Source: Opitutales bacterium
GTDB lineage: Bacteria > Verrucomicrobiota > Verrucomicrobiia > Opitutales > JABSRG01
DNA: 64,000 bases
Direction: 5' to 3'
NCBI GenBank assembly: GCA_049599475.1
Contig: JBMYOQ010000017.1
Location: 1-64,000, forward strand
The notes beneath the pieces were generated by a model, which worked only from the letters and a program-made list of their open reading frames with translations, made no database searches and had not been told where the DNA came from. This document shows, piece by piece, positions 16,660-32,104 of this stretch; position 1 is the first letter of the stretch, and the number at the start of each line of letters is the position of its first letter. The position numbers and the translations under genes are program-made.

Positions 16660-18042
16660 TTATTCGTCGAGAGGCGTTTTGGTTAAAATGTCTTTAGGGG
16701 TGCGGTTCATGAATTCTTCGATGAATTTCGTGGTAGCCTCACCTTGTCTAAATACGGGATCGTTTACAATTGCTTTAGTAAAGGGAATCGTCGTTTTGAT
16801 CCCTCTCACTAGATATTCACTTAAAGCGCGATTCATGCGATCCAATGCCAGGTCACGATTGCGCCCAAAAGTCATGACTTTACTGATCATGCTATCGTAG
16901 TAGGGCGGAATGGTGTAGCCGGAGTAAACATGCGAATCGATACGCACGCCATGGCCCCCAGGAGCGTAGTAGAGACCAATTTCCCCAGGGCATGGAGCAA
17001 AGTTGCGGCCCGGATCTTCAGCGTTCACACGCACCTCCACCGCATGGCGGAGGATCTTAATGTCTCTCTGCTGGTATGCGAGTTTCTCGCCGCTCGCGAT
17101 CAAGAGCTGCTCTTTCACCAGGTCGATACCGGTCACTTCTTCGGTAACACCATGCTCCACCTGGATACGGGTGTTCATCTCGATGAAGTAGAAATTGCCG
17201 TGTTTATCGACGAGATATTCGATGGTTCCGGCATTCGCATACCCACAGGCCTTCGCCGCATTAATCGAGGCATCGCCCATCTTTTTACGCAATTTCGGCG
17301 TAAGGAAGGGCGAGGGCGCTTCTTCGATCAGCTTTTGGTGGCGACGCTGAATGGAGCAATCCCGCTCACCGAGGTGGATCACGTTACCATATTCATCAGC
17401 GAGAATCTGAAACTCAATATGGCGCGGCTCTTCGATGAATTTTTCGATATAGACAGAACCATTGCCAAAAGCATTGGCAGCCTCATTGCGTGCGGCGATG
17501 AATTCCTTTTGGAAAGCCATCGCGTTATGCGCAGTCCGCATACCCTTACCGCCACCACCGGCGACCGCCTTGATGATTACAGGAAAACCGATTTCCTGAG
17601 CGACTTTGAGAGCTTCCGCTTCATCATCGATCACGCCATCTGAACCTGGGACTGTCGGAACACCGGCCTTTTTGACGATTTCACGTGCTACGGCCTTGTC
17701 ACCCATGTTGCGGATGATGTCGCCCTTGGGTCCAACGAACTTGATATTACACTGCTCACACTGGTCGGCGAAATCAGCGTTTTCAGCCAAGAATCCGTAA
17801 CCAGGGTGAATGGCATCCACATCGGCAATCTCGGCTGCGCTAATGATGCGATCCGATTTCAGATAGCTCTCAATACCCGGCGCTGGGCCAATGCAAATAG
17901 CGGCGTCTGCCAGCTGGACGTGAAGAGACTGTTCGTCAGCCTCTGAATAGACTGCGATAGTCTGGATTCCCAGCTCGCGACAGGCACGAACGATGCGCAG
18001 GGCAATTTCCCCGCGATTTGCGATCAGCAGTTTTTTAATCAT
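16660..18042 (-). CDS. accC: acetyl-CoA carboxylase biotin carboxylase subunit
   Basis: [47 protein letters not shown]. Confidence 0.98.
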
Positions 18043-18067
18043 GTGCGCTTTGGAGGGATCGAGGAGA

Positions 18068-18559
18068 TTAAGCCTTTAGCTTAAGGAGCGGCTGCCCGAA
18101 TTCGACAGGGTCTCCGTTCTCGACCAAAATTTCTGCGACAGTTCCAGTCTCTTCGGCCTGGATTTCGTTCATCACCTTCATGGCTTCAATAATGCAGACA
18201 GGTGTATCAGCGCTCACTTTAGACCCAATCTTCACGAAAGGCTCAGCATCTGGAGACGGCGCTGTGTAGAAAGTTCCGACCATGGGAGATTTTACGATTT
18301 TGAAGTCCCCGCTTTCAGCAGCAGGCGCCGCAGCTGGGGCAGGTGCAGGTGCCGCAGCAGCCTCAGTTGGAAACGGAGGCACCGTAGCAGCCGGTGCATA
18401 AGCGGGTGCGGGCGGCATATATGTAACTGCCGGCGCGGCCGCTGGTTGACTACCTTCACGCGAAATCTTTAGCTTGAGGCCATCTTCTTCGATCTCGAAA
18501 TCGGTCAGATCGGCCCGCTTCATGAGGTCGACGAGTTGCTTAATGTTTTTAAGATCCAA
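18068..18559 (-). CDS. accB: acetyl-CoA carboxylase biotin carboxyl carrier protein
   Basis: [17 protein letters not shown] biotinylation motif, Ala/Pro linker; TTG start. Confidence 0.98.
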
Positions 18560-18802
18560 GGCTTAGGTTGGTTAGAGTTAAATGGGCGACAAAAACGCTG
18601 AACTGGGTGCGTGACAATACGTAAAATCCGAATCCTTCTTCGTAATTTCTCGAAGAACTGAGCTAAATTTGCGCCCAAACTTCCTATATTAAACCGAAAA
18701 AGCATTGAAACGGCAGCCTTTCTCCGTTCGCTTCCATCACTTTTCAGCACCGATTTAGGTACCCATTAGTCTACATTTTACCCGATTCCCGACCCAAACT
18801 TT

Positions 18803-20809
18803 GTGAGCGATCGTTCTTCCCATCTTCCAGAAGTCACCGAAATGCTCGGCGAATATTACGCCGACTACGCATCCTACGTCATCCTTGACCGCGCTGTTCC
18901 GTATATTCAGGACGGCCTGAAGCCGGTCCAGCGACGCATCCTGCATGCACTTTGGGAAAAGGACGACGGACGCTTCAACAAGGTAGCGAACGTGATCGGG
19001 CACACCATGTCCTATCACCCCCACGGAGATGCATCCATCGGGGACGCTCTGGTGCAGCTCGGCCAAAAGAATCTCCTGGTCGAAACTCAAGGAAACTGGG
19101 GAAATATCTATACTGGGGACTCCGCAGCGGCCGCCCGTTACATCGAAGCGCGCCTCAGCAAATTCGCCAAGGAAGTCGTCTTTAACAAAAAGACCACACA
19201 CTGGGACAAGTCATACGATGGCCGCAATGACGAGCCGATTCACCTCCCAGTAAAATTCCCACTCGTCCTAGCAATGGGCGTCGAGGGTATCGCCGTAGGC
19301 ATGGCCTGTAAGATCATGCCGCACAATTTCAATGAGTTGTGCGACGCCTCCATCGCGTCTCTCAAAGGAGAAACATTCGAGCTTGTCCCAGATTTTCAGA
19401 CAGGCGGCATCGCAGATTTCTCAGATTACCGCGACGGCCTCCAAGGAGGCAGAATCAAAGTCCGTGCACGGATCGAAAAAGGTGAAAAGAAATCGATCCT
19501 GAACATCAGCGAGATCCCCTTCGGCACAAATACACAAACGCTCATCCAGAGCATCGTGAACGCCTCGGAGAAGGGAAAGATCAAGATCGCGAAGGTGGAA
19601 GACCTGACCTCCGACGTCGTCCGCATCCGAATCACACTCCCTGGCGGCATCGATCCTCAGACTGCCATGGATGCACTTTATGCCTTCACCGACTGTGAGA
19701 TCTCCATCGCGCCGAACACCGCAGTCATTCACAAGGGCAAACCCAACTTTCTTGGCGTCTCCGAGATCCTCGCCCTTTCGGCAAAGCACACTAAGGCTCT
19801 CCTGAAATGGGAACTCGAGATCAAGCGCGATGAACTCGAGGAGGAATGGCATTTCAAATCACTCGAGCGCCTCTACATCGAGCACGAGCTCTATGATCTG
19901 CTCAAAAAAGTGCAGACCAACCCGGAAGCACATAAAGTCTTACTCAAGGCCCTCAAGCCGCTTCTGCCTCAGGTGAACCTGAAGCGCGATATCACTCACG
20001 ACGACATCGAAAAGCTGCTCGATGTACAAACCCGTCGGATCATCCGCCACAACGCCGAGGCCGCAGACAAAAAGCTCAAGGATATCGAGGATGCCCTCAA
20101 ACAAGTCCGCGCCTACCTTCGCAAACTCAACGAATACACCATCGCGTGGTTCACCGATCTCAAAAAGCGCTACGGTAAGGAGCGCGAGCGTCGCACCGAG
20201 ATTTCGAGTTTCGACAAAATCGTCGCAGCCGAGGTCGCGATTGCCAACGAGACCCTAAATCTCGACCGCAAAGAAGGCTTCGCGGGCTATGCCTTAAAGC
20301 GAGGTGGCAAATACGAGCTCATTGGCAAGTGTTCGCGCATGGACGACACCATCACTTTCCGCAAGAACGGGACAATGGTCGTGCAGAAAGTGGGCGAAAA
20401 AGTCTTTGTCGGTGTCGACCCGATCCACTGCGCACTTTTCCCGAAGGACGATACCACCGTATACTGCATGCTCTACTTCGACAAGAAATCAGGCAGGACC
20501 TACGGTAAGAAATTCCAGATCGGCGGCGTCACCCGTGAACGCGAGTATGCCCTCGTAAAAGACACCGCGAAAAGCCGCATTCTCTTTCTGCAGGCCCTCG
20601 AAAGTCCCGAAACACCGGCACCGACGCTCTGGGTCCGCCTGAAACCTCAACCCCGCCTCCGCAAGGATCTCATTCCTTTCGACTTTGGCAGCATTGAAAT
20701 CAAAGGCCGCGGTGCCATCGGCAACATAGTCGCCGACAAGCCCATCAAGGCGATCACCAAAAACCGGCCAGCCGACGCCCCAGCACCTCAGCAAGGCGAC
20801 CTGTTTTAG
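18803..20809 (+). CDS. parC: DNA topoisomerase IV / gyrase subunit A (short form, probably ParC)
   Basis: DGLKPVQRRIL, YHPHGDASI, AAARYIEARL catalytic Tyr; 668 aa with a shortened C-terminus and no recognisable GyrA box. Confidence 0.8.
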   Translation: MSDRSSHLPEVTEMLGEYYADYASYVILDRAVPYIQDGLKPVQRRILHALWEKDDGRFNKVANVIGHTMSYHPHGDASIGDALVQLGQKNLLVETQGNWGNIYTGDSAAAARYIEARLSKFAKEVVFNKKTTHWDKSYDGRNDEPIHLPVKFPLVLAMGVEGIAVGMACKIMPHNFNELCDASIASLKGETFELVPDFQTGGIADFSDYRDGLQGGRIKVRARIEKGEKKSILNISEIPFGTNTQTLIQSIVNASEKGKIKIAKVEDLTSDVVRIRITLPGGIDPQTAMDALYAFTDCEISIAPNTAVIHKGKPNFLGVSEILALSAKHTKALLKWELEIKRDELEEEWHFKSLERLYIEHELYDLLKKVQTNPEAHKVLLKALKPLLPQVNLKRDITHDDIEKLLDVQTRRIIRHNAEAADKKLKDIEDALKQVRAYLRKLNEYTIAWFTDLKKRYGKERERRTEISSFDKIVAAEVAIANETLNLDRKEGFAGYALKRGGKYELIGKCSRMDDTITFRKNGTMVVQKVGEKVFVGVDPIHCALFPKDDTTVYCMLYFDKKSGRTYGKKFQIGGVTREREYALVKDTAKSRILFLQALESPETPAPTLWVRLKPQPRLRKDLIPFDFGSIEIKGRGAIGNIVADKPIKAITKNRPADAPAPQQGDLF

Positions 20810-20837
20810 GTCCAGAGGTTTTTTTAGAAGCCTTCGC

Positions 20838-21218
20838 TCACTTCACGCTCGAACACGCTATGTTCGGGCTCTCGGGGTTGATATCAAGTCTGCGATCCTT
20901 TGGAGTCACAACGAGATCCATATCTTCCATGGGGATGGCTCCAATGAGCACTTCGTTACCGAACACCAGTGCCCCGAAGAGGCCCGTTCGATTTTTAAAA
21001 GTCATCTTAATGGGGCCCATGTAAGGAACGATCCGCTTACTGCCATCCGCGATGGTCACCTCTTTCTCGTCATACTTTTCGAGTTTTAATTGAATAGCAA
21101 CATGCTCAGGAACACATAGATGAACCGAACTCGTATCAGCCAGTGCCTGAGTCCGAACCGGCATGAGTTCGGGAAATCGAGGATTTTGAAAAGTAACCTC
21201 TGTGTAAACGAGTCCCAT
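20838..21218 (-). CDS. clan AA (retropepsin-like) aspartic protease family protein
   Basis: MGLVYTEV...ALADTSSVHL...IADGS...VLIGAIPMEDMDLVV. Confidence 0.8.
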   Translation of the reverse strand: MGLVYTEVTFQNPRFPELMPVRTQALADTSSVHLCVPEHVAIQLKLEKYDEKEVTIADGSKRIVPYMGPIKMTFKNRTGLFGALVFGNEVLIGAIPMEDMDLVVTPKDRRLDINPESPNIACSSVK

Positions 21219-21527
21219 TTTTTTCAGAATTTATCTATCAAAGTGCTCCATAAACCAGCCCAAAACCTGCGTCCATCTGCGAATTCAACAGAGCCCTTGA
21301 AAATAGCCAAAAAACATTCGCGGCTTGCCAAAGGCCTGAATCTCTGATCTCTTCCGCCCCTTCGTTTGGCCGAAAGTACTTTGGTGCAGTCTCTTGATGA
21401 GTTGCAGGTGGGGTGTTTTTGTCCCCCACTGACCGACCTACAGATGAGAATCGGTTCTTGGATCCATCCATCATCTCATCAATTTGTTCCGCAGGCTTTT
21501 CAAACAGTCTGGGGAGCGTCGTATATT

Positions 21528-23036
21528 ATGACTCAGACATCATTCGCCGATCTCGGGCTATCCGATCGGATCGTTAAAGCATTGACTAAAAGCGGCTACG
21601 CCGAGCCTTCGCCTATCCAGGCACAGGCCATTCCCCACCTCGTAGAGGGCAAAGACCTCTTTGGCTGTGCTCAAACAGGTACCGGTAAAACAGCAGGATT
21701 CGCCCTGCCTGTTATTCAGCGCCTCCTCGAGGAGGGCTCCCACCGTGTCCGCAAATCGCCTCGGGCTCTCGTACTAGCGCCCACCCGCGAACTCGCGGCT
21801 CAAGTCGCTGACAGTTTCAGAAAATACGCAGCCAGCACACCGCTCAAAGTAGGGCTTGTCCATGGCGGCGTATCTTTTGGTCCACAGAAAAAGACTTTGA
21901 ACTACGGCGTAGATATCCTCGTCGCGACACCTGGCCGCCTTATGGATCTCACCGACCAAGGGTATTTTGAGGGCGAGCGCGTCATGGCCTTTGTATTGGA
22001 CGAAGCTGACCGCATGCTTGATATGGGCTTCTCTAAGGACGTCGAACATATTGCCGAAGGCCTCAGTCCCGATCGCCAGACTATTCTTTTCTCTGCGACT
22101 ATCTCCAAAGATATCGAGAAATTTGCCCGCACCCTCCTTCACGATCCCGTCGAAGTACGCGTATCTCCAGAAGTCACTACAGCGGAGAAAATCGACCAGC
22201 AAATCTGCTTTGTAAAAGCTGCCGATAAGCGCGACTTGCTTGTAGGTATTTTGGAAGGACAGGACGATCAAGGTGTTCTTCAGGACAAAGTGATCGTCTT
22301 CACAAAAACAAAATATGGCGCCGACAAACTCTGCAAATTCTTGATACGTTCTGACTTTTCAGCAGACGCAATTCACGGCGACAAATCTCAAGCTGCGCGT
22401 AAGAAGGCTCTATCTAAATTCACCGACGGGCGCTGCGATATCTTAGTGGCGACCGACGTCGCTGCTCGCGGTATCGACATTAAGTCTCTCGGACTTGTAG
22501 TGAATTACGAACTACCGATGGAAGCCGAAGCATATGTGCACCGTATTGGTCGCACCGCGCGCGCCGGAGCTACCGGCATGGCTGTCTCTTTCTGCGGCGA
22601 AGATGAATTCGGCCTGCTCAAAGACATCACTAAGCTGATTGAGCAAGAGATTCCAGTTTTCGACGAACACGAGTTTCACTCTGAAGAGCTCCAAGAAGGG
22701 TTTTCCGAATTCCTCATCCGTCGCAGACCTGGCGGTAAGCGCGGAGGCCCTCGTGGACGCAATCCACGCCAACGCAGAAGCGGACCCCGCAATGGCGAAA
22801 AGCGCGACTTCAAACCACGCGGCGAAGGTTCTCGCGATGGTGGACCGCGTGGACCACGCTCACGTGACGAAGGCCCTCGCGAAGAAGGCGCACGCCGCGG
22901 ACCTCCGCGCAAACGCAGCTTCCAAAAAGGCCCCGCGGACAGGAGTGATCGCCCATTCAAACGCGCCGGAAAACCCGCAGGCAAACAACGCCGCAACTTC
23001 TCAGGCCCACGCAGCCGGAAACCCGCCTCCCACTAG
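21528..23036 (+). CDS. DEAD-box RNA helicase with Arg/Gly-rich C-terminal tail
   Basis: Q motif, AQTGTGKT, PTRELA, DEADRMLDMGF, SAT, HRIGRTAR; ATG at 21528. Confidence 0.97.
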   Translation: MTQTSFADLGLSDRIVKALTKSGYAEPSPIQAQAIPHLVEGKDLFGCAQTGTGKTAGFALPVIQRLLEEGSHRVRKSPRALVLAPTRELAAQVADSFRKYAASTPLKVGLVHGGVSFGPQKKTLNYGVDILVATPGRLMDLTDQGYFEGERVMAFVLDEADRMLDMGFSKDVEHIAEGLSPDRQTILFSATISKDIEKFARTLLHDPVEVRVSPEVTTAEKIDQQICFVKAADKRDLLVGILEGQDDQGVLQDKVIVFTKTKYGADKLCKFLIRSDFSADAIHGDKSQAARKKALSKFTDGRCDILVATDVAARGIDIKSLGLVVNYELPMEAEAYVHRIGRTARAGATGMAVSFCGEDEFGLLKDITKLIEQEIPVFDEHEFHSEELQEGFSEFLIRRRPGGKRGGPRGRNPRQRRSGPRNGEKRDFKPRGEGSRDGGPRGPRSRDEGPREEGARRGPPRKRSFQKGPADRSDRPFKRAGKPAGKQRRNFSGPRSRKPASH

Positions 23037-23047
23037 GGGAAATCAAA

Positions 23048-23525
23048 AGTCCACGAAATACACCAAAAGCACGAAAGCTATTGATCAAAGGATGATCCTT
23101 TTGATCTGAGCTTTCGGGTAGTGGCCAAAGTTGACAAGGAGTCCGACACGATGGCCCGTGGACTTGAGGTAGTTTAATACCTGGGCATCGTGCTCAGATG
23201 AGAGCATCTTTAACGCTTTGAGTTCGACTATAATTGAGTCATAGCAAACAAAGTCTGGCTTGTAGGTTTGCCTGAGCCGTTGGCCTTTGTAATCTAGCTG
23301 AAGCTCCGGCTGAGGCAGGTACGAGATATTTTGATTTATAAATTCAATCTCTAAACACTCCTGATATACCGCCTCAAGAAACCCGCATCCCTTATTTCGA
23401 TACACTTCGAAAACAGCACCCTGTATCTTGTAACACTCATCTTTATACAAAAGATTTTGATCCATCTTCCTTAGACCAAATCACTTATATACATTTTCGT
23501 GCTTTTTGTGTATTTAGTGGACTCC
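23048..23525. mobile_element. putative element: GxxExxY gene bounded by ~30-bp inverted repeats
   Basis: AGTCCACGAAATACACCAAAAGCACGAAA (23048-23076) versus the reverse complement of 23495-23523: 27/29 identical; lies between two stop codons. Mobility is inferred. Confidence 0.7.
23085..23465 (-). CDS. GxxExxY protein (PD-(D/E)XK nuclease superfamily)
   Basis: GFLEAVY motif, PDFV...IIVELKA, QVLNYLK, GLLVNFG; 126 aa. Confidence 0.95.
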   Translation of the reverse strand: MDQNLLYKDECYKIQGAVFEVYRNKGCGFLEAVYQECLEIEFINQNISYLPQPELQLDYKGQRLRQTYKPDFVCYDSIIVELKALKMLSSEHDAQVLNYLKSTGHRVGLLVNFGHYPKAQIKRIIL

Positions 23526-23526
23526 T

Positions 23527-25437
23527 CTACCACACCACCGGATGTGTTTCTCCATTGGTGACATTTACGAAGCCTTGCGGGCAGCCTTCGAAGGGAGCTA
23601 CGAGTACCCATTTCCACGGGGTGCAGGTAAGCCAGGCAAAAATCATTCTGCGCGGTAGCCCTGGAGCACCGATCCAATCCATGGTGTCTGCGGCAGCGAA
23701 GAGGTTCTCGAGTTCGTCGGCCACTTCCTGAGGTGTGCGCGCTGACATGATCCCGCCAATCTCAAAGGTTACCTTAGCGATCACTTCTCCCTCTTTCACC
23801 AGCACCCATCCTCCATTCATCTCAGCGAGTGTGTTGAGCGCGAGTGCCATAGCTTCATCGTCATTACCCAGAGCCCATGCATTGTGCAGGTCATGAGCCA
23901 CCGTGCAGGCGACGGCGGATTTAGGGTTCAATGGCCCTACATCACGCCAAAACATTTTGGCAACCTGTCCGGTGCTGTGAAAACGATCTGCCAGAGCCAC
24001 CTTTGAAATGCCCTTCTCAGGATCTGCATACACTTGCCCATTCTTCACAGACATCTTCTCCTCCATGAAATCTTCTTCGAAATAGAAAGGTCGTAACAGG
24101 GCCGCCGTCACCTCTGTTTGCGCTGGATCAGGAGGCCGAATTGCCAAGTCTTCAGGAGTGATGGTTTTCCCAAAATTTATTGTATTCTTGGCCCACTCAG
24201 GCCAATCGATTTTCGGGACTTCCAATAAATACTTCCCCTTCTCGGCAGCGTGCTTCCCATTCACATAAACGGTATCTATTGCAACCTTTTTGGGATCCGA
24301 CAAGAGGACAAGATCAGCATAACGCCCTGGTGCGATCGAGCCCACCTTATCATCAACTTGTGCATGCTTTGCTGGATACAAAGTAGCCATAGCATAGGCC
24401 TTTTCCACAGGAGCCCCGGCCTCGATTGCCAAACGTAAATTGTAATTCTGCGTTCCCAACTCCAAGGACTCCGCAGCATTTCGATCATCGGTAGTAAAAC
24501 AAATATGCGACCAATCTTGTATTCCCTTTTCCATTAAATAGGGGATCACCACGGGGATCGCGTGGTATCTGAGCTGAAGGAAAACGCCTCGCGAGAGTTT
24601 GTCCCACGCTTCCTCGGCCATGCGCACTTCGTGATCGCTCTCGAGACCAGAAGCCGAAAATGCGTTAATCGAAGGTAAATCGCGCAGGCCAGAGCCGTGC
24701 CCCTCAATTACCCCATCTTCATCCATAGCCGCCTGTATCACTTCCCATATACGCTGAGATCCCGGCAAGTCCGTATTCCACAGTCGAGGCCAATCCATCA
24801 CCTCGCCCAGACCGATCACCCACTCTTCTTCCTGCATGTATTTGCGAACTTCTTCATAGCCATAATAGCCACCCCCGCGCTCATAGGGCGTCGGCGGTGT
24901 AGCCGACCCTAGTTCAACAAATATTTTGAGCGGACTGCCTCTTCGCATCGGCGTGAGCCAGAAGTCTACATTATGCTCGCCTGCGATATTGGAAAACTCG
25001 TGGGAGCCTTCAATGGTCCAAGTATTTCCGAAGGGGATCACTAGGGCCGCCTCGTATTCCGGAGTCAGGTGAGAGCTCTCAATATGCTTGTGTGACTCTC
25101 CGAAACCAGGAACGGCATATAAATCTGGATACGCTACTTTAGAGTCCGCCTCACCTGCCCATTCGCCAGAGGGTCCAGTCCAGGCTATCCGTTCGCCCGA
25201 TATTACGATATCCCAATTTTCCTTCCATGTCCCCGAGAAGACGTCCAGCATCTTGCCTACCGTCACAATTTTATCAGCGGGCTGATGGCCCATCGCTACG
25301 CGCATCAGCTTCTGCCGTGTCAGAATTTCTTCACTGAATTCGAACTTCTCATCTCCATGGGCATAGAGACTTTGAATGAGCCCCAACAAACTGAGACACA
25401 GGGCGGCAACTGAGGTGTATTTCATAAATTTTGTCAT
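23527..25437 (-). CDS. adenine deaminase family amidohydrolase with N-terminal signal peptide
   Basis: PGFGESHKHIESSH, GLGEVMDW, SDHE, TTDD, GSIAPGRYAD, TVAHDLHN; start 25437 overlaps the upstream stop (ATGA). Confidence 0.85.
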   Translation of the reverse strand: MTKFMKYTSVAALCLSLLGLIQSLYAHGDEKFEFSEEILTRQKLMRVAMGHQPADKIVTVGKMLDVFSGTWKENWDIVISGERIAWTGPSGEWAGEADSKVAYPDLYAVPGFGESHKHIESSHLTPEYEAALVIPFGNTWTIEGSHEFSNIAGEHNVDFWLTPMRRGSPLKIFVELGSATPPTPYERGGGYYGYEEVRKYMQEEEWVIGLGEVMDWPRLWNTDLPGSQRIWEVIQAAMDEDGVIEGHGSGLRDLPSINAFSASGLESDHEVRMAEEAWDKLSRGVFLQLRYHAIPVVIPYLMEKGIQDWSHICFTTDDRNAAESLELGTQNYNLRLAIEAGAPVEKAYAMATLYPAKHAQVDDKVGSIAPGRYADLVLLSDPKKVAIDTVYVNGKHAAEKGKYLLEVPKIDWPEWAKNTINFGKTITPEDLAIRPPDPAQTEVTAALLRPFYFEEDFMEEKMSVKNGQVYADPEKGISKVALADRFHSTGQVAKMFWRDVGPLNPKSAVACTVAHDLHNAWALGNDDEAMALALNTLAEMNGGWVLVKEGEVIAKVTFEIGGIMSARTPQEVADELENLFAAADTMDWIGAPGLPRRMIFAWLTCTPWKWVLVAPFEGCPQGFVNVTNGETHPVVW

Positions 25438-26633
25438 AAAATGTGGATACGTTGAAGGGTCCAAAATGCAGCAACCAGGGCGATCAAGAGATTTATCGGA
25501 ATACACACAAAGGGCGTGTATCCTTTCCATGAGAACAAGGGCTTCAGTAAAACATATGCGATTAGGAGGACGCAGAGCTGCCCGAGCTCCACCCCGAAGT
25601 TGAACGCCGCAAGCGCCAACAGAGGTGCATCAGACGGGATGGGGTAGGTGCTCAAGACTCCGGCAAAACCCATTCCATGCAACAAGCCCACGGCGAAAAT
25701 AATAGCAGCATGCCACTTATGCGTGAGGCGCATCTGAGGACGCAAGTTACTTAAGCCGACGTAGACGATCGAAGCCGCGATCAAGGGCTCCACAATATCT
25801 GGTAGGCTGGGAACGTAGCCAAACATGGTCAGCCCGAGGGAAACCGTGTGCGCTAAGGTAAATAGCGAGATATGAAGGATTTTCTCCCGCAAGCCTTGTC
25901 CCAGGAAAAAGAGCCCAAGGATAAAAAGTATGTGATCCCAACCCCGTGGAATAATGTGAATGAAACCCAGTCCAATGAAGGTGCCCAGCCATGACCAAGG
26001 GGTCGTCGTCTGTTCCACAGATTTCGATTCGGACACCGGAGCGTCCCTTACCATCGCAGGACTCGGCTCGATCAACGCAGGCCGGTGCTCGAAGCCTGGA
26101 CTCGTCTGGCCCGCAGCAAGCCAACGTGTCTGGCGACGTTCGGAGTCGAGTGAATCTCGAAAAGTGACGACAAAGGGATGTTCGACGGGCACCCGTGGGT
26201 CGGTTTGGATCTGTATATTTTCAGCCAGTTCCGGTAGCTCGAATTCAAAATCGACGGTGCTCATCGGAGCCGCCCAGGGCTCAGTAAATTTCTCCAGGGG
26301 CAAATCTGGGTAGGCATATCCGGTAATGTCCCAGGGAGTCGACTCTCCGTTAATAAGCACACCCACCCCACGCAGCAGATCTGCCTGCCACTTCTTTGCA
26401 ATCTCCGCATCTCGGCTCTGGCTCACCGCGAAATAGGCCTCAGGCGATCCTATCAATCGAACCAAATCGATCTCCATCTTCCCAATGGCCTTTCCAGTGC
26501 GGCCATCGAGATGAATTTCACAACGCGTCATATTCAACAGATGCCCATGGGCAGACAGCCCGATGAACACCCAAAGACCAAGCAAGACAGACCTCAGAAA
26601 CAGCAACACAACGCGATAAGCCGCACAAAACAT
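25434..26633 (-). CDS. HupE/UreJ family membrane protein with N-terminal periplasmic domain
   Basis: GFIHIIPRGWDHILF, FTLAHTVSL, GLLHGMGFA, FNFGVELGQ; signal peptide ending SAH; start uncertain. Confidence 0.88.
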   Translation of the reverse strand: MFCAAYRVVLLFLRSVLLGLWVFIGLSAHGHLLNMTRCEIHLDGRTGKAIGKMEIDLVRLIGSPEAYFAVSQSRDAEIAKKWQADLLRGVGVLINGESTPWDITGYAYPDLPLEKFTEPWAAPMSTVDFEFELPELAENIQIQTDPRVPVEHPFVVTFRDSLDSERRQTRWLAAGQTSPGFEHRPALIEPSPAMVRDAPVSESKSVEQTTTPWSWLGTFIGLGFIHIIPRGWDHILFILGLFFLGQGLREKILHISLFTLAHTVSLGLTMFGYVPSLPDIVEPLIAASIVYVGLSNLRPQMRLTHKWHAAIIFAVGLLHGMGFAGVLSTYPIPSDAPLLALAAFNFGVELGQLCVLLIAYVLLKPLFSWKGYTPFVCIPINLLIALVAAFWTLQRIHIL

Positions 26634-26749
26634 ACCAGCCAGGGGACTAAGCTTAAAAACCTGAGAGCGCCATAGGAGCCCCAATAGCACTTCGCCTTAT
26701 CCACCTATGTTCTAGCCCATTCGCGTAAATGTATATTCACTCGTAGCAT

Positions 26750-26766
26750 CAGGAACGACTCGTGCG
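26750..26766 (+). promoter_or_regulatory. candidate sigma54 -24/-12 promoter of adenosine deaminase
   Basis: CAGGAACGACTCGTGCG: GG-N10-GC. Confidence 0.4.
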
Positions 26767-26789
26767 TTCTCCTCAAAAGACACAGCATT

Positions 26790-27758
26790 ATGCAAACGCT
26801 CACCGCAGACGTAAAAGAATGGATCCGTGCGCTTCCAAAGACCGAAACTCACCTTCATATGGAAGGCGCAGTCCCCTTGGAAATGGTGCAGGCTGCTTTA
26901 CCGGAACGCTTTCCGGGTGAACCTATCTTCTGGAAACCCGACTACCGTTTCGAAAACTTCGACGCGTTTTCCACCCTTTTCGGAGAAATCGCGGGGGCCG
27001 TATTCACGTCCCCAGAGGCCTACCATCAATGCGCTCAACACGTTTTTGCGAATCTGGCGTCACAAAACTGCCAATACGTCGAGACGAGTATTGCGCTCGG
27101 GGCTCTCGTGCGCTCCGAACTCGATGGCCCGACAGTCATCGACGCGATCCTCTCTGCCGCCCCCGTAAACATGCGCGTCCGTGTGTTTATGGGAATGCGC
27201 CACAATGAATATGAGGGCCTGGGTCAGGAGCTAATCGAAGAAAGCTTAAACTGGGAAAACCTCACGGGTCTCGACCTCCATGGACCAGAATACCTCCCAC
27301 TGGAACCATGGACTGCCGATGTATGGAAACGGGCCCGCGAAGCCGGGAAATTCAACAAAGCCCACGCCGGTGAGTTCATGCCTGCCGCTTTCGTAAAACG
27401 CTGCGTCGAAGAGCTCGGCGTGACACGTATCCAACACGGCGTACGTTCTGTTGAAGACCCTGAAGTTGTTGAACTCCTCCGAGATCAAACGGTAACCCTA
27501 GACGTCTGCCCAATCAGTAATGTTAAACTGTGCGTTGATGGGATTTCTGAAATCAAAGACCATCCAATTCGTCAGCTAATCCAATCGGGCGTCCAATGCA
27601 CAATAAATACTGACGATCCGTTTTTCTTCGGCAACACCCTCTGCGCAGAATACGAGTGCCTTTATCAGCATCTGGACTTCGGCATGGACGAACTCGAAGG
27701 CATCGCAAAGACCGGCCTTGCGAGGGCTCAGGAAATTGACCGGTCGATTCAGCGATAA
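26790..27758 (+). CDS. adenosine deaminase family protein
   Basis: LPKTETHLHMEG, DLHGPE, HAGE, RIQHG, CPISN, INTDDP. Confidence 0.92.
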   Translation: MQTLTADVKEWIRALPKTETHLHMEGAVPLEMVQAALPERFPGEPIFWKPDYRFENFDAFSTLFGEIAGAVFTSPEAYHQCAQHVFANLASQNCQYVETSIALGALVRSELDGPTVIDAILSAAPVNMRVRVFMGMRHNEYEGLGQELIEESLNWENLTGLDLHGPEYLPLEPWTADVWKRAREAGKFNKAHAGEFMPAAFVKRCVEELGVTRIQHGVRSVEDPEVVELLRDQTVTLDVCPISNVKLCVDGISEIKDHPIRQLIQSGVQCTINTDDPFFFGNTLCAEYECLYQHLDFGMDELEGIAKTGLARAQEIDRSIQR

Positions 27759-27760
27759 CC

Positions 27761-28807
27761 CTAAGCCGTAAAGTCTCGACCCAAGCCTAGCTTTGTCAGC
27801 CAGCGCCGAAAGGCTACGGAGGACTTATCCGCCATCACGGATACTTCGGCAGCAGCATCGAGGGGGATTTCCTCGGGTTTCTGATTTTCGATCATCACGC
27901 GGTCCTCTCCCAAGATTTTTTCCTCCCACGCGAGGAGATCTTCCACCGGAACGTCGTGATCAAAATTGCGCGTGAAGACGACGATGAGCTGACTCTTTCG
28001 CGCAGACACCGGAGCGATATTTATATGGATAATGTGATCCCGTCCGCCCGGATAATGGATCGCTGTTCGGGTCGCAAAGGGGAAAAAGAGCGTGCGATGC
28101 ATGTATCGGTGTAGCTCACTAGCGTTGGCAATCGGAGAATCTTTGGGATTCGTCGCCTGATATTCGAAGGCCATGATCATCTTTTGATCATCCACTTCAA
28201 AATCGTAGGTCGAGCCCTGCTCCGCGTGCTCCTCGACGCCGAATGTGTTGCGATGCACAAATGAGAAGTGGGCATTATCAATAAAATTCTCAATCGCGCG
28301 GCCCGCCGAACAATTCCAAATCTCGGGCCCCATCGTGAATCGGAAAAAATTCGGATCACTCGCTTCCGGCTCCCATTCAGGCAACATATTCGTTGGCTCA
28401 CCACGCAGACACACCCAGACCAGGCCATATTTGACCGCGCTGCGGAAGACCAAAAGCTTCAGCTTATTGTTGATCTTCGCCTTCGGATCACTGGGAACGA
28501 GCGTGCATTGCCCATCCGCCCCGTAGCGATAGCCATGATAAGGGCAGACAATGCAGCCATCTCGGGTCCACCCCATAGACATCGGAGCCCCGCGATGTAT
28601 GCACAGATCGCGTGCCACCAAAATCTCGTCGCCCAGCCGGGCCAGGACTAGATCTACATCGAGCAAGGTCACCTTGCGCGGCTTATCGGTGACCTCCTCT
28701 TCTAGGGCAATCGGATACCACAGATTCGACAGCGCCATCCAATCCGACTCGGAAAAGGTACACTCTGTTGGGTAAGTCGCATCACTCCACTGCTTTAGGG
28801 ATTCCAT
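27761..28807 (-). CDS. Rieske non-heme iron oxygenase alpha subunit (VanA/Ndm demethylase-like)
   Basis: CIHRG...CPYHG Rieske ligands, ENFIDNAHFSFVH mononuclear iron motif, GEDR; ATG at 28807. Confidence 0.92.
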   Translation of the reverse strand: MESLKQWSDATYPTECTFSESDWMALSNLWYPIALEEEVTDKPRKVTLLDVDLVLARLGDEILVARDLCIHRGAPMSMGWTRDGCIVCPYHGYRYGADGQCTLVPSDPKAKINNKLKLLVFRSAVKYGLVWVCLRGEPTNMLPEWEPEASDPNFFRFTMGPEIWNCSAGRAIENFIDNAHFSFVHRNTFGVEEHAEQGSTYDFEVDDQKMIMAFEYQATNPKDSPIANASELHRYMHRTLFFPFATRTAIHYPGGRDHIIHINIAPVSARKSQLIVVFTRNFDHDVPVEDLLAWEEKILGEDRVMIENQKPEEIPLDAAAEVSVMADKSSVAFRRWLTKLGLGRDFTA

Positions 28808-28819
28808 GGAGCAGAAGAC

Positions 28820-28836
28820 AGCACGGGTTATTCCAA
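28820..28836 (-). promoter_or_regulatory. candidate sigma54 promoter of the Rieske gene
   Basis: Minus strand TTGGAATAACCCGTGCT (GG-N10-GC), 13 nt before the ATG. Confidence 0.5.
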
Positions 28837-28842
28837 GAAATG

Positions 28843-29132
28843 GGAGTCCACGAAACACACAAAAAACACGAAAATCTCCCGCTCGAAAGGAACGCGAATT
28901 ACGATGTGATTATTATACGTTTTCTTAAAATTCTTTTCGTTTATAAGGGCGTCGCCTCGGAACTCTGTTCCGGGGTGATAGTTGCGGTCTCGAGTTCCTA
29001 GACGCCCCAGTTCTGAGAATTGAGGCTACACTATGAAAATAATTTTGAGAATCGTTCCACAACAAATGCTATGAATCTATCCAGAAACACAGAACCTTAG
29101 CTTTCGTGCTTTTTGTGTGTTTCGTGGACTCC
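28843..29132. mobile_element. gene-less (MITE-like) copy of the GxxExxY inverted-repeat element
   Basis: GGAGTCCACGAAACACACAAAAAACACGAAA (28843-28873) versus the reverse complement of 29102-29132: 30/31 identical; same family as 23048/23495. Confidence 0.75.
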
Positions 29133-29140
29133 ATCAATCT

Positions 29141-29157
29141 TTGGCATAGGCATCGCT
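29141..29157 (+). promoter_or_regulatory. candidate sigma54 promoter of the SSS transporter
   Basis: TTGGCATAGGCATCGCT (GG-N10-GC), 12 nt before the ATG at 29169. Confidence 0.55.
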
Positions 29158-29168
29158 GATTGGCGGCT

Positions 29169-30599
29169 ATGAGTGCTTATGCTATCTGGGCCCTGGTCTT
29201 CCTCTCAGCCTACGGAATGTGGCTGTTGTTTCTCACTGTGCGTAGCTGGAAGAATCCATCGGGCAATCCAGAGAGCTTCTTTTTGGCCAGCAAACAGGTC
29301 GGACTGATCCCAACGATTCTTACTTTCTGGGCCACCTACATCAGCGCAGCAGCAATTATTGGTGGCGCGGGCTACTACTACATTCATGGCATCGGGAATC
29401 TGTATTTTGCGGTGTTTTCCTACACAATACTTGCGATTATTTCAGGGACCTTAGGTCGAAGGCTGTGGCGACTTTCCCGTGAATACCCAGAGGTTCGCTC
29501 GCCCATACAGCTCTACTTGCGCTCGTACAAATCCGGCGCGCTCGAAGTCCTGTTCGTCATCGTAGCGCTGTATTGTATGATCCCTTACATTGCCACGCAG
29601 ATTACCGGCATTGCCAGACTCTTGGAAGGAGCACTTGGTCTTCCCTACGCGCCCACCGCCGCGGGCGCACTCGCAGTAATCTATTTGTATTCGGAATCTG
29701 GAGGCGTAAAGAACATCATCAAGACCGATGTCGTACAGTCCCTTATGACCATCTTCGGCTGCTTAGGCGTTGTCATCGCGTTTCTCTGGGCCAATTGGTC
29801 TCTCGATTTTTCGGCGTTTTTAGCGGATGTCGATGCCGTGCACGAAGAGTCGCTTCTCGGAATACCCGGCCCGAATGGTCTCTACACTGCACCCGTTCTC
29901 ATTGGCATTGCCATTATGCTTTCGTTTGGGGGCATTTCGATGGCCCACAATGCGCAGCGCTACATGATGGCCAAGGATGAGAAGTTTCTGAAAATACTCA
30001 TGTTTGTCTTCCCCTTCATGGGTATCATCACGACCGTCATGGCTGGAATCCTCGGCCTCGGGGGCGCCGTAGTGTTTCCCGGCTTGGAGAGCGGAGACCA
30101 GGTCATTGGTAAAGTGACAGCGAGTGTCCCCGCGATCATCGGAGCGATGGCAACGATTGGTATCATTGCCGCCACGATGTCTACTGCAGACTCGATTTTG
30201 CTCAGTGTCGGATTCATCGTAAGCGAACAGCGCTATCGCGGCAAAAAGGACGTAGAGCCCAAGAAAATTCTTAATATTCACCGCTGGTTCACGCTCGGCA
30301 TCTCTCTATTTGCCTTCATCGCAAGTATTAAGCCGGAGCTAGTTACCGAGCTTGTATTTGGTGCCTTTGGAGGAATGCTCCAACTGACCCCAGCCATGAT
30401 TTTGGGCATCTATCACAAGTCTCCATCCAAATGGATCGGCGCTGCCAGTGTCATCGTGGGTCTGATCGTGATGACCGCGAGCACCACGGAGTGGTATCAA
30501 GGCTCGATTCTCAGCAGCTTGCCCGGCTATCTTTCCGGATTTTTAGCCGCAGCCATCATCACGCTGATCAACATCGCTGCGCCCCAAAAGCAATCCTAG
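29169..30599 (+). CDS. sodium:solute symporter family protein
   Basis: Many TM helices; FFLASKQVG, ATYISAAAIIGG, GGVKNIIKTDVVQS, AATMSTADS. Confidence 0.92.
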   Translation: MSAYAIWALVFLSAYGMWLLFLTVRSWKNPSGNPESFFLASKQVGLIPTILTFWATYISAAAIIGGAGYYYIHGIGNLYFAVFSYTILAIISGTLGRRLWRLSREYPEVRSPIQLYLRSYKSGALEVLFVIVALYCMIPYIATQITGIARLLEGALGLPYAPTAAGALAVIYLYSESGGVKNIIKTDVVQSLMTIFGCLGVVIAFLWANWSLDFSAFLADVDAVHEESLLGIPGPNGLYTAPVLIGIAIMLSFGGISMAHNAQRYMMAKDEKFLKILMFVFPFMGIITTVMAGILGLGGAVVFPGLESGDQVIGKVTASVPAIIGAMATIGIIAATMSTADSILLSVGFIVSEQRYRGKKDVEPKKILNIHRWFTLGISLFAFIASIKPELVTELVFGAFGGMLQLTPAMILGIYHKSPSKWIGAASVIVGLIVMTASTTEWYQGSILSSLPGYLSGFLAAAIITLINIAAPQKQS

Positions 30600-30601
30600 C
30601 C

Positions 30602-32104
30602 TCAGCGCCAACGCTCCATCGCATTGTGCTTCGGTAATTCCCAAATTCTACGACCCGTTTTTTCCTCGGTTTCGTAGCTTTCGAAGAACATGTCTCTGGC
30701 GCTTCGTAGACTATCTTGCTGCGCAGATGAGGGCGCCGGGCTTTCGAAGCGCTCCTTGAGTGGATGCGCCAAGTCGAACCAAGCTTCGGTATAGGTACCG
30801 TCGGGTTCATAACGGGTAACTAGTTTCCATCGGCCGTCATGGACCATGCGCGCATTCCCGTATTCAGCGTATTGATACTTTCGCCAATCCAAAGGGCGCT
30901 TACCTTGAAGTAGCGGCTTGAGGCTCACGCCAGGGCCCTCGGATGTTCGAGGGTCATCAAATGCGACATCGAGGAGGGTCGCGTGTAAGTCACACAGGGT
31001 GATGAATTCACTGCGAACCTGTCCACTCAGCACCCACGCATCGGGCCCCGAAACGATGAAGGGAACGTTTATAGATTCCTGATACAAATTCTGAGGAATG
31101 CTCCCATTTCCCTTTCCGTATAATCCATATTGCCCAGTCATATGCCCATGATCCGAGGTATATACGATAAGGGTCTCCTCAGTAATCTCGCGACCTTGTA
31201 ATGCATCCAAAATACGCCCGACTTGCTCATCCAACAGAGAGACCGCCGCGAGGTATTGAGCCATCTGCTCTGTATGATTGGTAATCACCTCGCCGGCCAT
31301 CGCGGGCCTTCCGAGTGTGGAATTACCGCCCGGAGCCACCAAGTCGTTTGCAATGGGTCTATACTTTGCGACAAGCCGTTCAGGAAGATCCTCGAACGGA
31401 AAATGCGGTTCGACATAATTGAGGAAAATGGCGAAAGGCGCGTCGGCTGGTTCGTCGATGAAGCTTATCGCATTTTCCGTAAGAAAGTGGGCTTGAACGC
31501 CCGTGAATTTTTCCGCCTCACCATCTCTTGAGAAATGAACAGTGCCCGCGTGTAGGTATTGATTAATCCAAGGCGCATCCCGCTCGTCATAACTCAGCCA
31601 GCGATCAAAGCCACGCGCCGGGCGCCAGCTTTCATTGTCCGCATGCCATTTGCCAAACAGCCCGACACGGTAGCCGGCCTCCTGGAGGTCCTCGGAGAGC
31701 AACCTTTCGCCTTTCAGCCACCCGTCTTTCTGAGCGAAGTCTTCCGATAGGAAATCATGCACGCCATGCTGCGATGGCATTTTCCCAGTAAAGAAACTTG
31801 CACGCGCCGCCGAGCACACAGGCACCGGCGATATGGCCTGGTCAAAGCGCACCCCAGTTTTCGCCAGGTAATCCAAATTCGGTGTATGAATCAGCTCGTC
31901 GTAGGCTCCCAAAGCCCAACGCCCCTGGTCATCAGACATAATGACAATCAGGTTCGGTTTCGATGTCTGCTCTTCCGCTTGCAGGTTCCCAAAGAAACAA
32001 CCGCTCAGAACCGCGAGCGCCAAGACGCGAGAATAATTTAAAATTCCCCCTCTCTCAAACCAAGCTCTCATACAACCGCCACTTACCAGTTTGCTATCAA
32101 CCAA
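30602..32104 (-). CDS. sulfatase (S1, Cys-type), secreted
   Basis: KPNLIVIMSDD, CSAARAS, GKWH, YTSDHG; start uncertain. Confidence 0.92.
   Translation of the reverse strand: MVDSKLVSGGCMRAWFERGGILNYSRVLALAVLSGCFFGNLQAEEQTSKPNLIVIMSDDQGRWALGAYDELIHTPNLDYLAKTGVRFDQAISPVPVCSAARASFFTGKMPSQHGVHDFLSEDFAQKDGWLKGERLLSEDLQEAGYRVGLFGKWHADNESWRPARGFDRWLSYDERDAPWINQYLHAGTVHFSRDGEAEKFTGVQAHFLTENAISFIDEPADAPFAIFLNYVEPHFPFEDLPERLVAKYRPIANDLVAPGGNSTLGRPAMAGEVITNHTEQMAQYLAAVSLLDEQVGRILDALQGREITEETLIVYTSDHGHMTGQYGLYGKGNGSIPQNLYQESINVPFIVSGPDAWVLSGQVRSEFITLCDLHATLLDVAFDDPRTSEGPGVSLKPLLQGKRPLDWRKYQYAEYGNARMVHDGRWKLVTRYEPDGTYTEAWFDLAHPLKERFESPAPSSAQQDSLRSARDMFFESYETEEKTGRRIWELPKHNAMERWR

Follow-up and report, generated by a model that had tools for sequence, protein, structure and literature searches.

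The window analysed here is the whole 64,000-nt stretch of contig JBMYOQ010000017.1 from an Opitutales bacterium. Within it, a small gene of the GxxExxY family sits between two host genes and is enclosed by a pair of inverted arms. The locus is made up as follows.

21366–23036, plus strand: RhlE-like DEAD-box helicase, a host gene convergent with the GxxExxY gene
23048–23076, plus strand: downstream arm (3′ of the gene), an inverted copy whose inner end lies 8 nt from the GxxExxY stop codon
23085–23465, minus strand: GxxExxY gene of 126 aa, predicted from profile and fold matches to encode a minimal RecB/Cas4-like PD-(D/E)XK nuclease
23495–23523, minus strand: upstream arm (5′ of the gene), with three 9-nt-spaced CAC-NN-A cores and its outer end 3 nt past the deaminase stop codon
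23527–25530, minus strand: adenine-deaminase-like amidohydrolase, the upstream host gene, co-directional with the GxxExxY gene

The arm pair at 23048–23076 and 23495–23523 is the longest of 27 inverted pairs found in the 1.7 kb scanned, with 29 nt per arm, 27/29 complementary positions (93%) and 418 nt between the arms. Together with the open reading frame at 23085–23465, this search bears out a preliminary description of the locus as a 126-aa gene boxed by arms identical at 27 of 29 positions. The left arm consists of three 9-nt units, as had been claimed, at 23052–23078, and the right arm departs from it at two core positions. Scored in the same way as the homologues described below, the flank pair reaches 48 (threshold 26). 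The unit was also correctly described as filling the gap between the host stop codons: that of the helicase ends at 23036 and that of the deaminase occupies 23527–23529, leaving 11 free nucleotides outside the arms on the helicase side and 3 on the deaminase side. These 11 and 3 nt contain no direct repeat, in agreement with the reported absence of a target-site duplication. The GC content of the element is 42%, compared with 50% for the genome.

No promoter match was found inside the cassette, and its transcription likely originates from the deaminase gene. The two arms pair with each other in the predicted RNA fold of the cassette (z −6.05), whereas neither arm forms a hairpin within itself. 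Rfam covariance models gave no match at E up to 1 between positions 20000 and 31000. On the far side of the helicase, between that gene and a topoisomerase subunit gene, a small open reading frame at 20838–21218 resembles clan AA aspartic proteases (TIGR03698, 51.6 bits, slightly below the cut-off of 57.35).

An empty allele of this locus was not found among contigs of four runs aligned to positions 18000–32000, family-level relatives or metagenome deaminase loci; the family-level relatives and the 23 metagenome deaminase loci are too distant for synteny comparison. Homologues of the flanking genes (42–63% identical, none linking both genes) had no GxxExxY gene beside them at any of 24 deaminase loci or of 9 helicase loci with downstream sequence. 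One apparent empty joint, from 23076 to 23495 with 24 letters between, proved to be another locus, its letters matching a gene-less arm pair on contig C31.

The GxxExxY protein scores 136.6 bits on TIGR04256 (cut-off 35) and 139 bits on PF13366 (cut-off 22), with the GxxExxY motif at G28-E31-Y34. A RecB-like PD-(D/E)XK motif set is present. The predicted catalytic motifs are E31, D71, E81-x-K83 and Q95-xxx-Y99, and among 179 proteins D71 and K83 are conserved in 179, E81 in 178, E31 and Q95 in 177 each and Y99 in 172. In both structure searches, the best match of the structure model (pLDDT 95.8) is the Cas4 protein SSO0001 (Foldseek E 9.6e-4, TM 0.62; Z 8.0), followed in one search by lambda-type exonucleases and in the other by a tie with the type II restriction enzymes SwaI and BpuSI; these scores are middling and indicate fold rather than function. 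A weak profile match to T7 endonuclease I (E 0.46) was set aside. Motifs and model together predict a minimal RecB/Cas4-like nuclease with intact catalytic motifs. The PD-(D/E)XK nuclease fold hydrolyses DNA and does not rejoin strands; it lacks a residue for joining them, which would leave that step to host repair. In the accessible part of PMC3424549, GxxExxY (as PDDEXK_3) is listed as of unknown function, with multiple transfers.

Arms of this kind are a general property of the family. Among the 80 closest homologues in the genome collection (58–70% identity), 5 were dropped for short flanks, and 67 of the 75 scorable loci carry inverted arms scoring at least 26, compared with 1/236 shifted and 2/375 shuffled flank pairs. 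The preliminary description had allowed that GxxExxY homologues might mostly lack arms; this possibility fails outright. The genome under study has five GxxExxY genes, and all five are boxed by inward-facing arms, each with its own 8- or 9-periodic class as read by eye. The locus is a real feature, one intact member of a widespread gene-plus-arms family. Where both arms could be parsed and the flanks were long (81 loci), the neighbour on the upstream side runs in the same direction as the gene in 72/80, with a median of 11.5 nt from its stop codon to the arm, and the downstream neighbour in 56/81. The neighbours themselves are highly diverse.

GxxExxY genes were present in 23/41, 37/61 and 14/41 genomes of three samples. 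They are rare on plasmids (8 of 72,556 records), no match was found in 50,697 phage records, and viral contigs yielded one candidate but no locus.

The survey also brought up several individual arrangements. At four loci (L005, L010, L015 and L016), the upstream arm overlaps the start codon, and the first residues of the protein are encoded by the arm. One efflux operon, represented by L004 and L005, holds GxxExxY cassettes of different clades at different junctions; its cassette lies upstream of the membrane-fusion gene in the genome under study and downstream of that gene in genome G002. L006 and L013, from genomes of different families, share both neighbours and the position of the cassette between them, suggesting either long residence or a preferred site. 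Two genomes (G004 and G006) contain many truncated GxxExxY matches that end near profile position 42–47, a recurring stub family that perhaps represents internally deleted and amplified cassettes. Finally, three genomes of a single phylum (G223:C1, G227:C9 and G239:C22) contain GxxExxY domains within open frames of 883 aa, and G006 contains one within a 686-aa frame, possibly as fusions to a larger protein.

The arms at 23048–23523 are not unique to the unit but are members of a dispersed repeat family. The three-core motif with 9-nt spacing has 44 strict matches in the 4.68-Mb genome, compared with 3, 2 and 1 in three base shuffles; as the motif is strict and fixed in position, these copy numbers are lower bounds. 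Nearly all of the matches (41/44) fall outside long open reading frames. The genome holds nine gene-less inverted pairs of this arm class, with gaps of 14–231 nt. Gene-less pairs within the window include the following.

2196–2251, no strand assigned: degenerate gene-less hairpin pair of the same arm class
28845–29132, no strand assigned: gene-less inverted pair of the same arm class, with cores at 28848 (plus) and 29103–29127 (minus) and 231 nt of unique interior, between Rieske oxygenase and sodium:solute symporter genes

Short gene-less pairs fold into long hairpins, the longer interiors that were tested are unique in the genome, and the pairs are not identical copies of one another. Fifteen other regions were scanned for GxxExxY remnants within gene-less pairs, and none was detected (best E 0.14). 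The pairs mostly neighbour ordinary genes, among them gatB, a methyltransferase, hydrolases and a topoisomerase subunit (33 proteins scanned, 29 from 61 listed open reading frames), and no transposase was found among the neighbours of 12 arm regions.

Several placements of the repeats are recorded here as observations. The outer arms of the cassette and of the pair at 28845–29132 face each other (23051–29127) across ~6 kb containing adenine deaminase, HupE/UreJ, adenosine deaminase and Rieske oxygenase genes, which may reflect a composite unit or chance placement. On contig C2 (47122–48200; L245:1623–2700), three same-strand arms, unlike the inverted pairs, lie beside two small nucleotidyltransferase-like open reading frames, one with a PF19502 match. 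A group II intron reverse-transcriptase fragment (L252:2137–2655) lies ~700 nt from the gene-less pair that follows gatB. On contig C18 (13845–15059; L243:1346–2560), a pRiA4b-ORF3-like gene (PF07929) is boxed by two hairpin doublets of this arm class, possibly a cargo cassette without the nuclease.

The repeat largely accompanies the gene. Across 41 order-level genomes, which are not independent and among which the gene-negative ones are smaller on average, the repeat pattern is present in 20 of the 23 relatives that have the gene and in 1 of the 18 that lack it, and at least three copies occur in 16/23 and 0/18, respectively. Each gene contributes one or two repeat matches through its own arms, but several genomes hold far more than that, with counts up to 166 (for example, 103 matches for 3 genes, 166 for 6 and 27 for 2). 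For the strict AA pattern, the class-specific link is weak: it is found in 2 of 8 genomes with a homologue at least 50% identical (10 copies each) and in 2 of 33 others (3 and 1 copies), and gene presence thus does not guarantee amplification.

These distributions bear on whether the arms might be mobilised in trans, by a RAYT/TIRYT, an IS transposase or a host recombinase, with GxxExxY as hitch-hiking cargo. The gene-less pairs do resemble REPINs or MITEs, the genome has 12 Y1-transposase matches, and the doublets on contig C18 box a gene unrelated to GxxExxY. However, no intergenic arm lies within 10 kb of any of the 12 Y1 genes, and the single match, at a distance of 337 nt, falls inside an open reading frame; the preliminary description had raised the prospect that the arms are ends of an insertion sequence whose transposase lies elsewhere in the genome, and these 12 genes do not have such arms. 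Mobilisation in trans also sits poorly with the near absence of the repeat from gene-negative relatives, with the change of arm class from one GxxExxY clade to another and with full and empty junctions that show no target duplication (both below). Taken together, we regard it as unlikely.

The arm sequence varies with the protein. In a tree of 179 proteins, all 74 rows with 'AA' cores fall in one fork of 92 rows (SH-aLRT 94), and 44 of 45 rows with 'AG' cores fall in a fork of 72. As the preliminary description had anticipated, arms co-vary with protein clade: the arm labels require 41 changes on the tree, compared with 91.6 on average after shuffling; the tree is a quick one of 129 columns from a sample biased to close homologues, and the arm-core classifier is crude, leaving 33 rows unlabelled, including this locus. 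The 63 AA-labelled named loci are spread over 17 phyla, one of them archaeal, and single genomes hold both clades. Judged from these sequences, the arms appear to follow the protein rather than the host. Physical linkage by itself would make arms track the protein tree; the retention of 30-nt motifs through 30–40% protein divergence across phyla further implies selection. The residue most tied to core type (GAA/GGA cores) is at position 15 of the protein, an association that draws on only 1–4 independent pairs and is inseparable from phylogeny.

Agreement between the two arms of a cassette is concentrated in the cores. In the 44 parseable arm pairs from 163 loci, agreement between arms is 0.86–1.0 at core positions, apart from a single one in the middle unit (0.68), and 0.48 at the first spacer position of each unit (positions 8 and 17). 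Matching cores, next to one almost unconstrained spacer position in each unit, suggest that the protein reads the repeated core, and the pattern fits this reading better than selection for a perfect duplex.

The same data speak to an RNA-level system, in which the arms would form a long stem in the transcript, as a stabiliser, a processing site or a protein-binding repeat, the protein would bind or cut RNA, and the cassette would move by ordinary horizontal transfer and recombination. Such a system would account for promoterless, co-directional cassettes placed directly after stop codons and for arms that pair in predicted RNA, with gene-less pairs that fold as hairpins; moreover, RNA-cutting members of the fold are present lower in the list of structure matches. 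Yet spacer positions are often mismatched between arms, and the arm pairs show no sense-strand G-U bias (37 versus 29, p 0.39). Both the QxxxY motif and the highest-ranking structures in the fold searches belong to DNA nucleases. Given also the form of cassette exchange described next, which is not what recombination would usually leave behind, we consider an RNA-level system doubtful, though more probable than the other alternatives.

No close relative covered the site at 23048–23523, and we therefore studied the junction occupied by L125, a cassette of Luteolibacter sp. The junction was sought in 151 genomes of that genus, and the best 30 loci were examined together with 5 earlier ones. Of these 35 loci, 15 hold a cassette A, 6 a cassette B, which has arms of its own and encodes a protein 47–55% identical to the query, 1 a cassette C and 1 an internal deletion of C in which the arms and a gene stub are left (L172 compared with L169). 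The remainder comprise 4 empty junctions (7–27 nt) and 8 with other hairpins, arm pairs or a gene. No locus among the 35 has two genes in tandem.

The preliminary description had looked to empty sites in close relatives as a sign of mobility, and vertical conservation without empty sites as a sign against it. Empty and alternative alleles do exist at the L125 junction, in another genus, whereas none was found for the locus itself; strict vertical conservation is thus contradicted at the level of the family only.

The alleles turn over against the history of their hosts. On trees of the two flanking genes (34 and 32 rows; L112 was omitted as a duplicate, and L119 and L155 have no downstream flank), cassette B requires 6 changes on each, three supported A/B sister pairs appear on both, and one A/empty pair appears on the upstream-gene tree. 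In three quartets, sites following the host tree reach to 4–42 nt of the junction, and sites following the cassette pattern stay at background (2, 11 and 3, compared with 102, 167 and 222 host-pattern sites). The persistence of host-pattern sites up to the junction suggests that whole cassettes changed without long co-conversion, the tract that homologous recombination, as the RNA-level system would invoke it, is usually expected to leave. Full and empty sister junctions show no target duplication, and no target motif is evident at the empty junctions.

The cassettes at this junction are not recent arrivals. Four-fold-site divergence is 0.58 for A (flanks 0.41) and 0.62 for B (flanks 0.53), and cassette divergence that equals or exceeds that of the flanks speaks against a recent sweep. 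Cassette A proteins nevertheless remain 88–95% identical despite this four-fold-site divergence, indicating cassettes that are old and under purifying selection. Three loci hold one cassette together with the right arm of the other, possibly through differential loss from an ancestral tandem of A and B. Three further candidates from the junction were not retained. Replacement of the last 30 nt of the upstream gene by the cassette was rejected, as the excess divergence there is alike in same-state (0.20 versus 0.125) and different-state (0.21 versus 0.10) pairs; polar stacking of cassettes at the stop codon is confined to three loci of one junction and is not general among 142 loci; and a faster exchange of cassette B between L147 and L151 was not significant (p 0.066).

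The coexistence of full and empty alleles at an orthologous junction, together with a small stand-alone nuclease, is what would be seen if the protein were a free-standing homing endonuclease that cuts the empty allele, with double-strand-break repair copying the cassette in and the arms being self-protecting or incidental. That account would lead one to look for co-converted flanks and a shared target, but the cassette-pattern sites in the flanks do not rise above background, the empty junctions lack an evident common motif, and a single clade is found at many unrelated sites, as a site-specific homing enzyme would not be. We judge homing very improbable.

Purifying selection on old copies is also compatible with a defence or addiction module, a minimal restriction-like nuclease held in check by its own arms as operator or decoy sites and kept because it harms phages or cells that lose it. 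The fold tie with SwaI and BpuSI would suit such a module, as would several homologous loci near long unannotated open reading frames that, by eye, resemble restriction–modification genes. On the other hand, no methyltransferase or partner gene travels along, the neighbours being diverse and at this locus a helicase and a deaminase, and a defence role leaves both the dozens of gene-less arm pairs after housekeeping genes and the like-for-like swaps at one junction unexplained. A module of this kind seems to us improbable.

The reading we prefer is a partnership like that of REP sequences and RAYTs but built on a hydrolytic nuclease; its steps of arm recognition, cutting and repair are ones we infer, and we see the case for and against it as evenly balanced. 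It is grounded in the gene-plus-arms architecture, the dispersed gene-less pairs, the ties of arm class to protein clade and of repeat to gene presence, the range of alleles at the L125 junction (full, alternative, empty and internally deleted), the intact catalytic motifs under purifying selection and the position directly after the stop codon of a co-directional gene. The protein would recognise the tandem cores and, as a likely sequence-specific nuclease, would cut at its own arms. Host repair after cutting would then, rarely, copy, swap or internally delete a cassette or gene-less pair. Landing sites would be junctions directly after stop codons, from which the cassette would be transcribed, and pairing of the arms in the transcript would loop the insert out of the message and so keep the cost to the host operon low.

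With respect to mobility, the 'minimal mobile element' of the preliminary description holds at the level of the family, where movement is supported but slow; an active transposon fits less well than a slow, semi-domesticated cassette, which we prefer because cassettes elsewhere are old residents under purifying selection and no empty allele was found here. A broader proposal is that these cassettes form a new class of mobile element in bacteria and archaea, in which a stand-alone 126-aa RecB/Cas4-like nuclease reads 8–10-nt periodic arms by a clade-specific code and cuts them. Aided by nothing but host repair, and lacking any transposase or recombinase fold, the nuclease would thereby bring about the precise exchange of cassettes and the seeding of gene-less hairpins after stop codons. 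We put this forward tentatively, with the balance tipped slightly towards doubt.

GxxExxY (PDDEXK_3) is very common and its function is listed as unknown. Its genes come with their own candidate substrate, which makes a direct assay obvious. If the protein moves its arms, it would constitute a second enzyme–repeat partnership beside REP/RAYT, with unrelated chemistry. The proposal, if true, would also account for an abundant class of intergenic repeats in little-studied phyla and would make available a set of very small nucleases whose specificities vary naturally. In the open literature, subscription journals being outside the scope of the search, we found no report that connects GxxExxY with repeats; some arms of this kind could be present in the repeat lists that accompany PMC3733652, and the term GxxExxY occurs in PMC12085832.

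Among known systems, the closest parallel is REPIN–RAYT and the TIRtrons of Di Nocera et al. As far as the accessible parts of PMC3733652, 10.1101/2021.07.10.451892 and PMC8266576 describe them, these share with the cassette an enzyme gene flanked on both sides by repeats of its own, numerous extragenic inverted doublets without a gene (~60–100 bp) and with a variable spacer, and several repeat-specific enzyme paralogues per genome, old and conserved. The extragenic gene-less doublets that match the repeats of the enzyme gene, a defining trait of REPIN–RAYT, are present here (nine pairs; 41/44 matches outside long open reading frames). By the same partial accounts, the enzyme and the repeat differ: RAYT is an HUH/tyrosine (Y1) enzyme, whereas the cassette protein is a PD-(D/E)XK protein of PF13366 with no Y1_Tnp match, and a REP is a short palindrome tagged GTAG (or CGTC), whereas the arm is non-palindromic and purine-rich, with three cores at 8–10-nt spacing and no GTAG tag. 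RAYTs are also described, in the accessible part of 10.1101/2021.07.10.451892, as vertically inherited, in contrast to GxxExxY, which is horizontally mixed, with one clade over 17 phyla including an archaeal genome, diverse neighbours and swaps at one junction.

Insertion sequences and MITEs resemble the cassette in their ~30-bp terminal inverted repeats around one open reading frame and in having internally deleted derivatives (L172 compared with L169); the cassette differs in its ragged outer ends and in showing no transposase family match, no target duplication and no identical copies. Free-standing homing endonucleases are small stand-alone nuclease genes between host genes, with full and empty alleles, and in this they are like the cassette. 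Unlike them, it shows no flank co-conversion, occupies many unrelated sites and comes with repeat arms and gene-less pairs; the phage collection contained no match. The separation of the cassette from known kinds rests on the absence of defining traits of REPIN–RAYT, IS/MITE elements and homing endonucleases, and would lapse if the mechanism were to act at the RNA level or in trans.

The remaining parallels concern the protein or the architecture taken singly. Cas4, lambda exonuclease and RecB-like nucleases (SSO0001, PDB 4ic1) have ~200 aa, compared with 126 aa for the cassette protein, at 18% identity; the four-cysteine iron–sulphur set of Cas4 is not conserved in GxxExxY (C11 in 24, C27 in 67, C37 in 132 and C74 in 89 of 179 proteins), and the cassette, unlike Cas4, has no CRISPR context. 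PDDEXK_2/Rpn proteins are larger than GxxExxY, and we know of no periodic arms associated with them. The GxxExxY protein has no match to PF12784, the PDDEXK_2 Pfam family. The likeness lies in a PD-(D/E)XK family for which a role in DNA mobility has been proposed, PDDEXK_2/Rpn being listed as 'putative transposase' in the accessible part of PMC3424549. In intervening sequences of 23S rRNA that carry an open reading frame, according to the accessible part of PMC4990558, a long stem likewise encloses the frame and can loop it from the transcript; the cassette, however, sits between protein-coding genes, encodes another protein family and has periodic arms. Finally, an integron cassette is a promoterless open reading frame with one attC site behind it, in an array that depends on an integron integrase; the GxxExxY cassette is also promoterless and co-directional, but its arms box the gene and its neighbours are a helicase and a deaminase.
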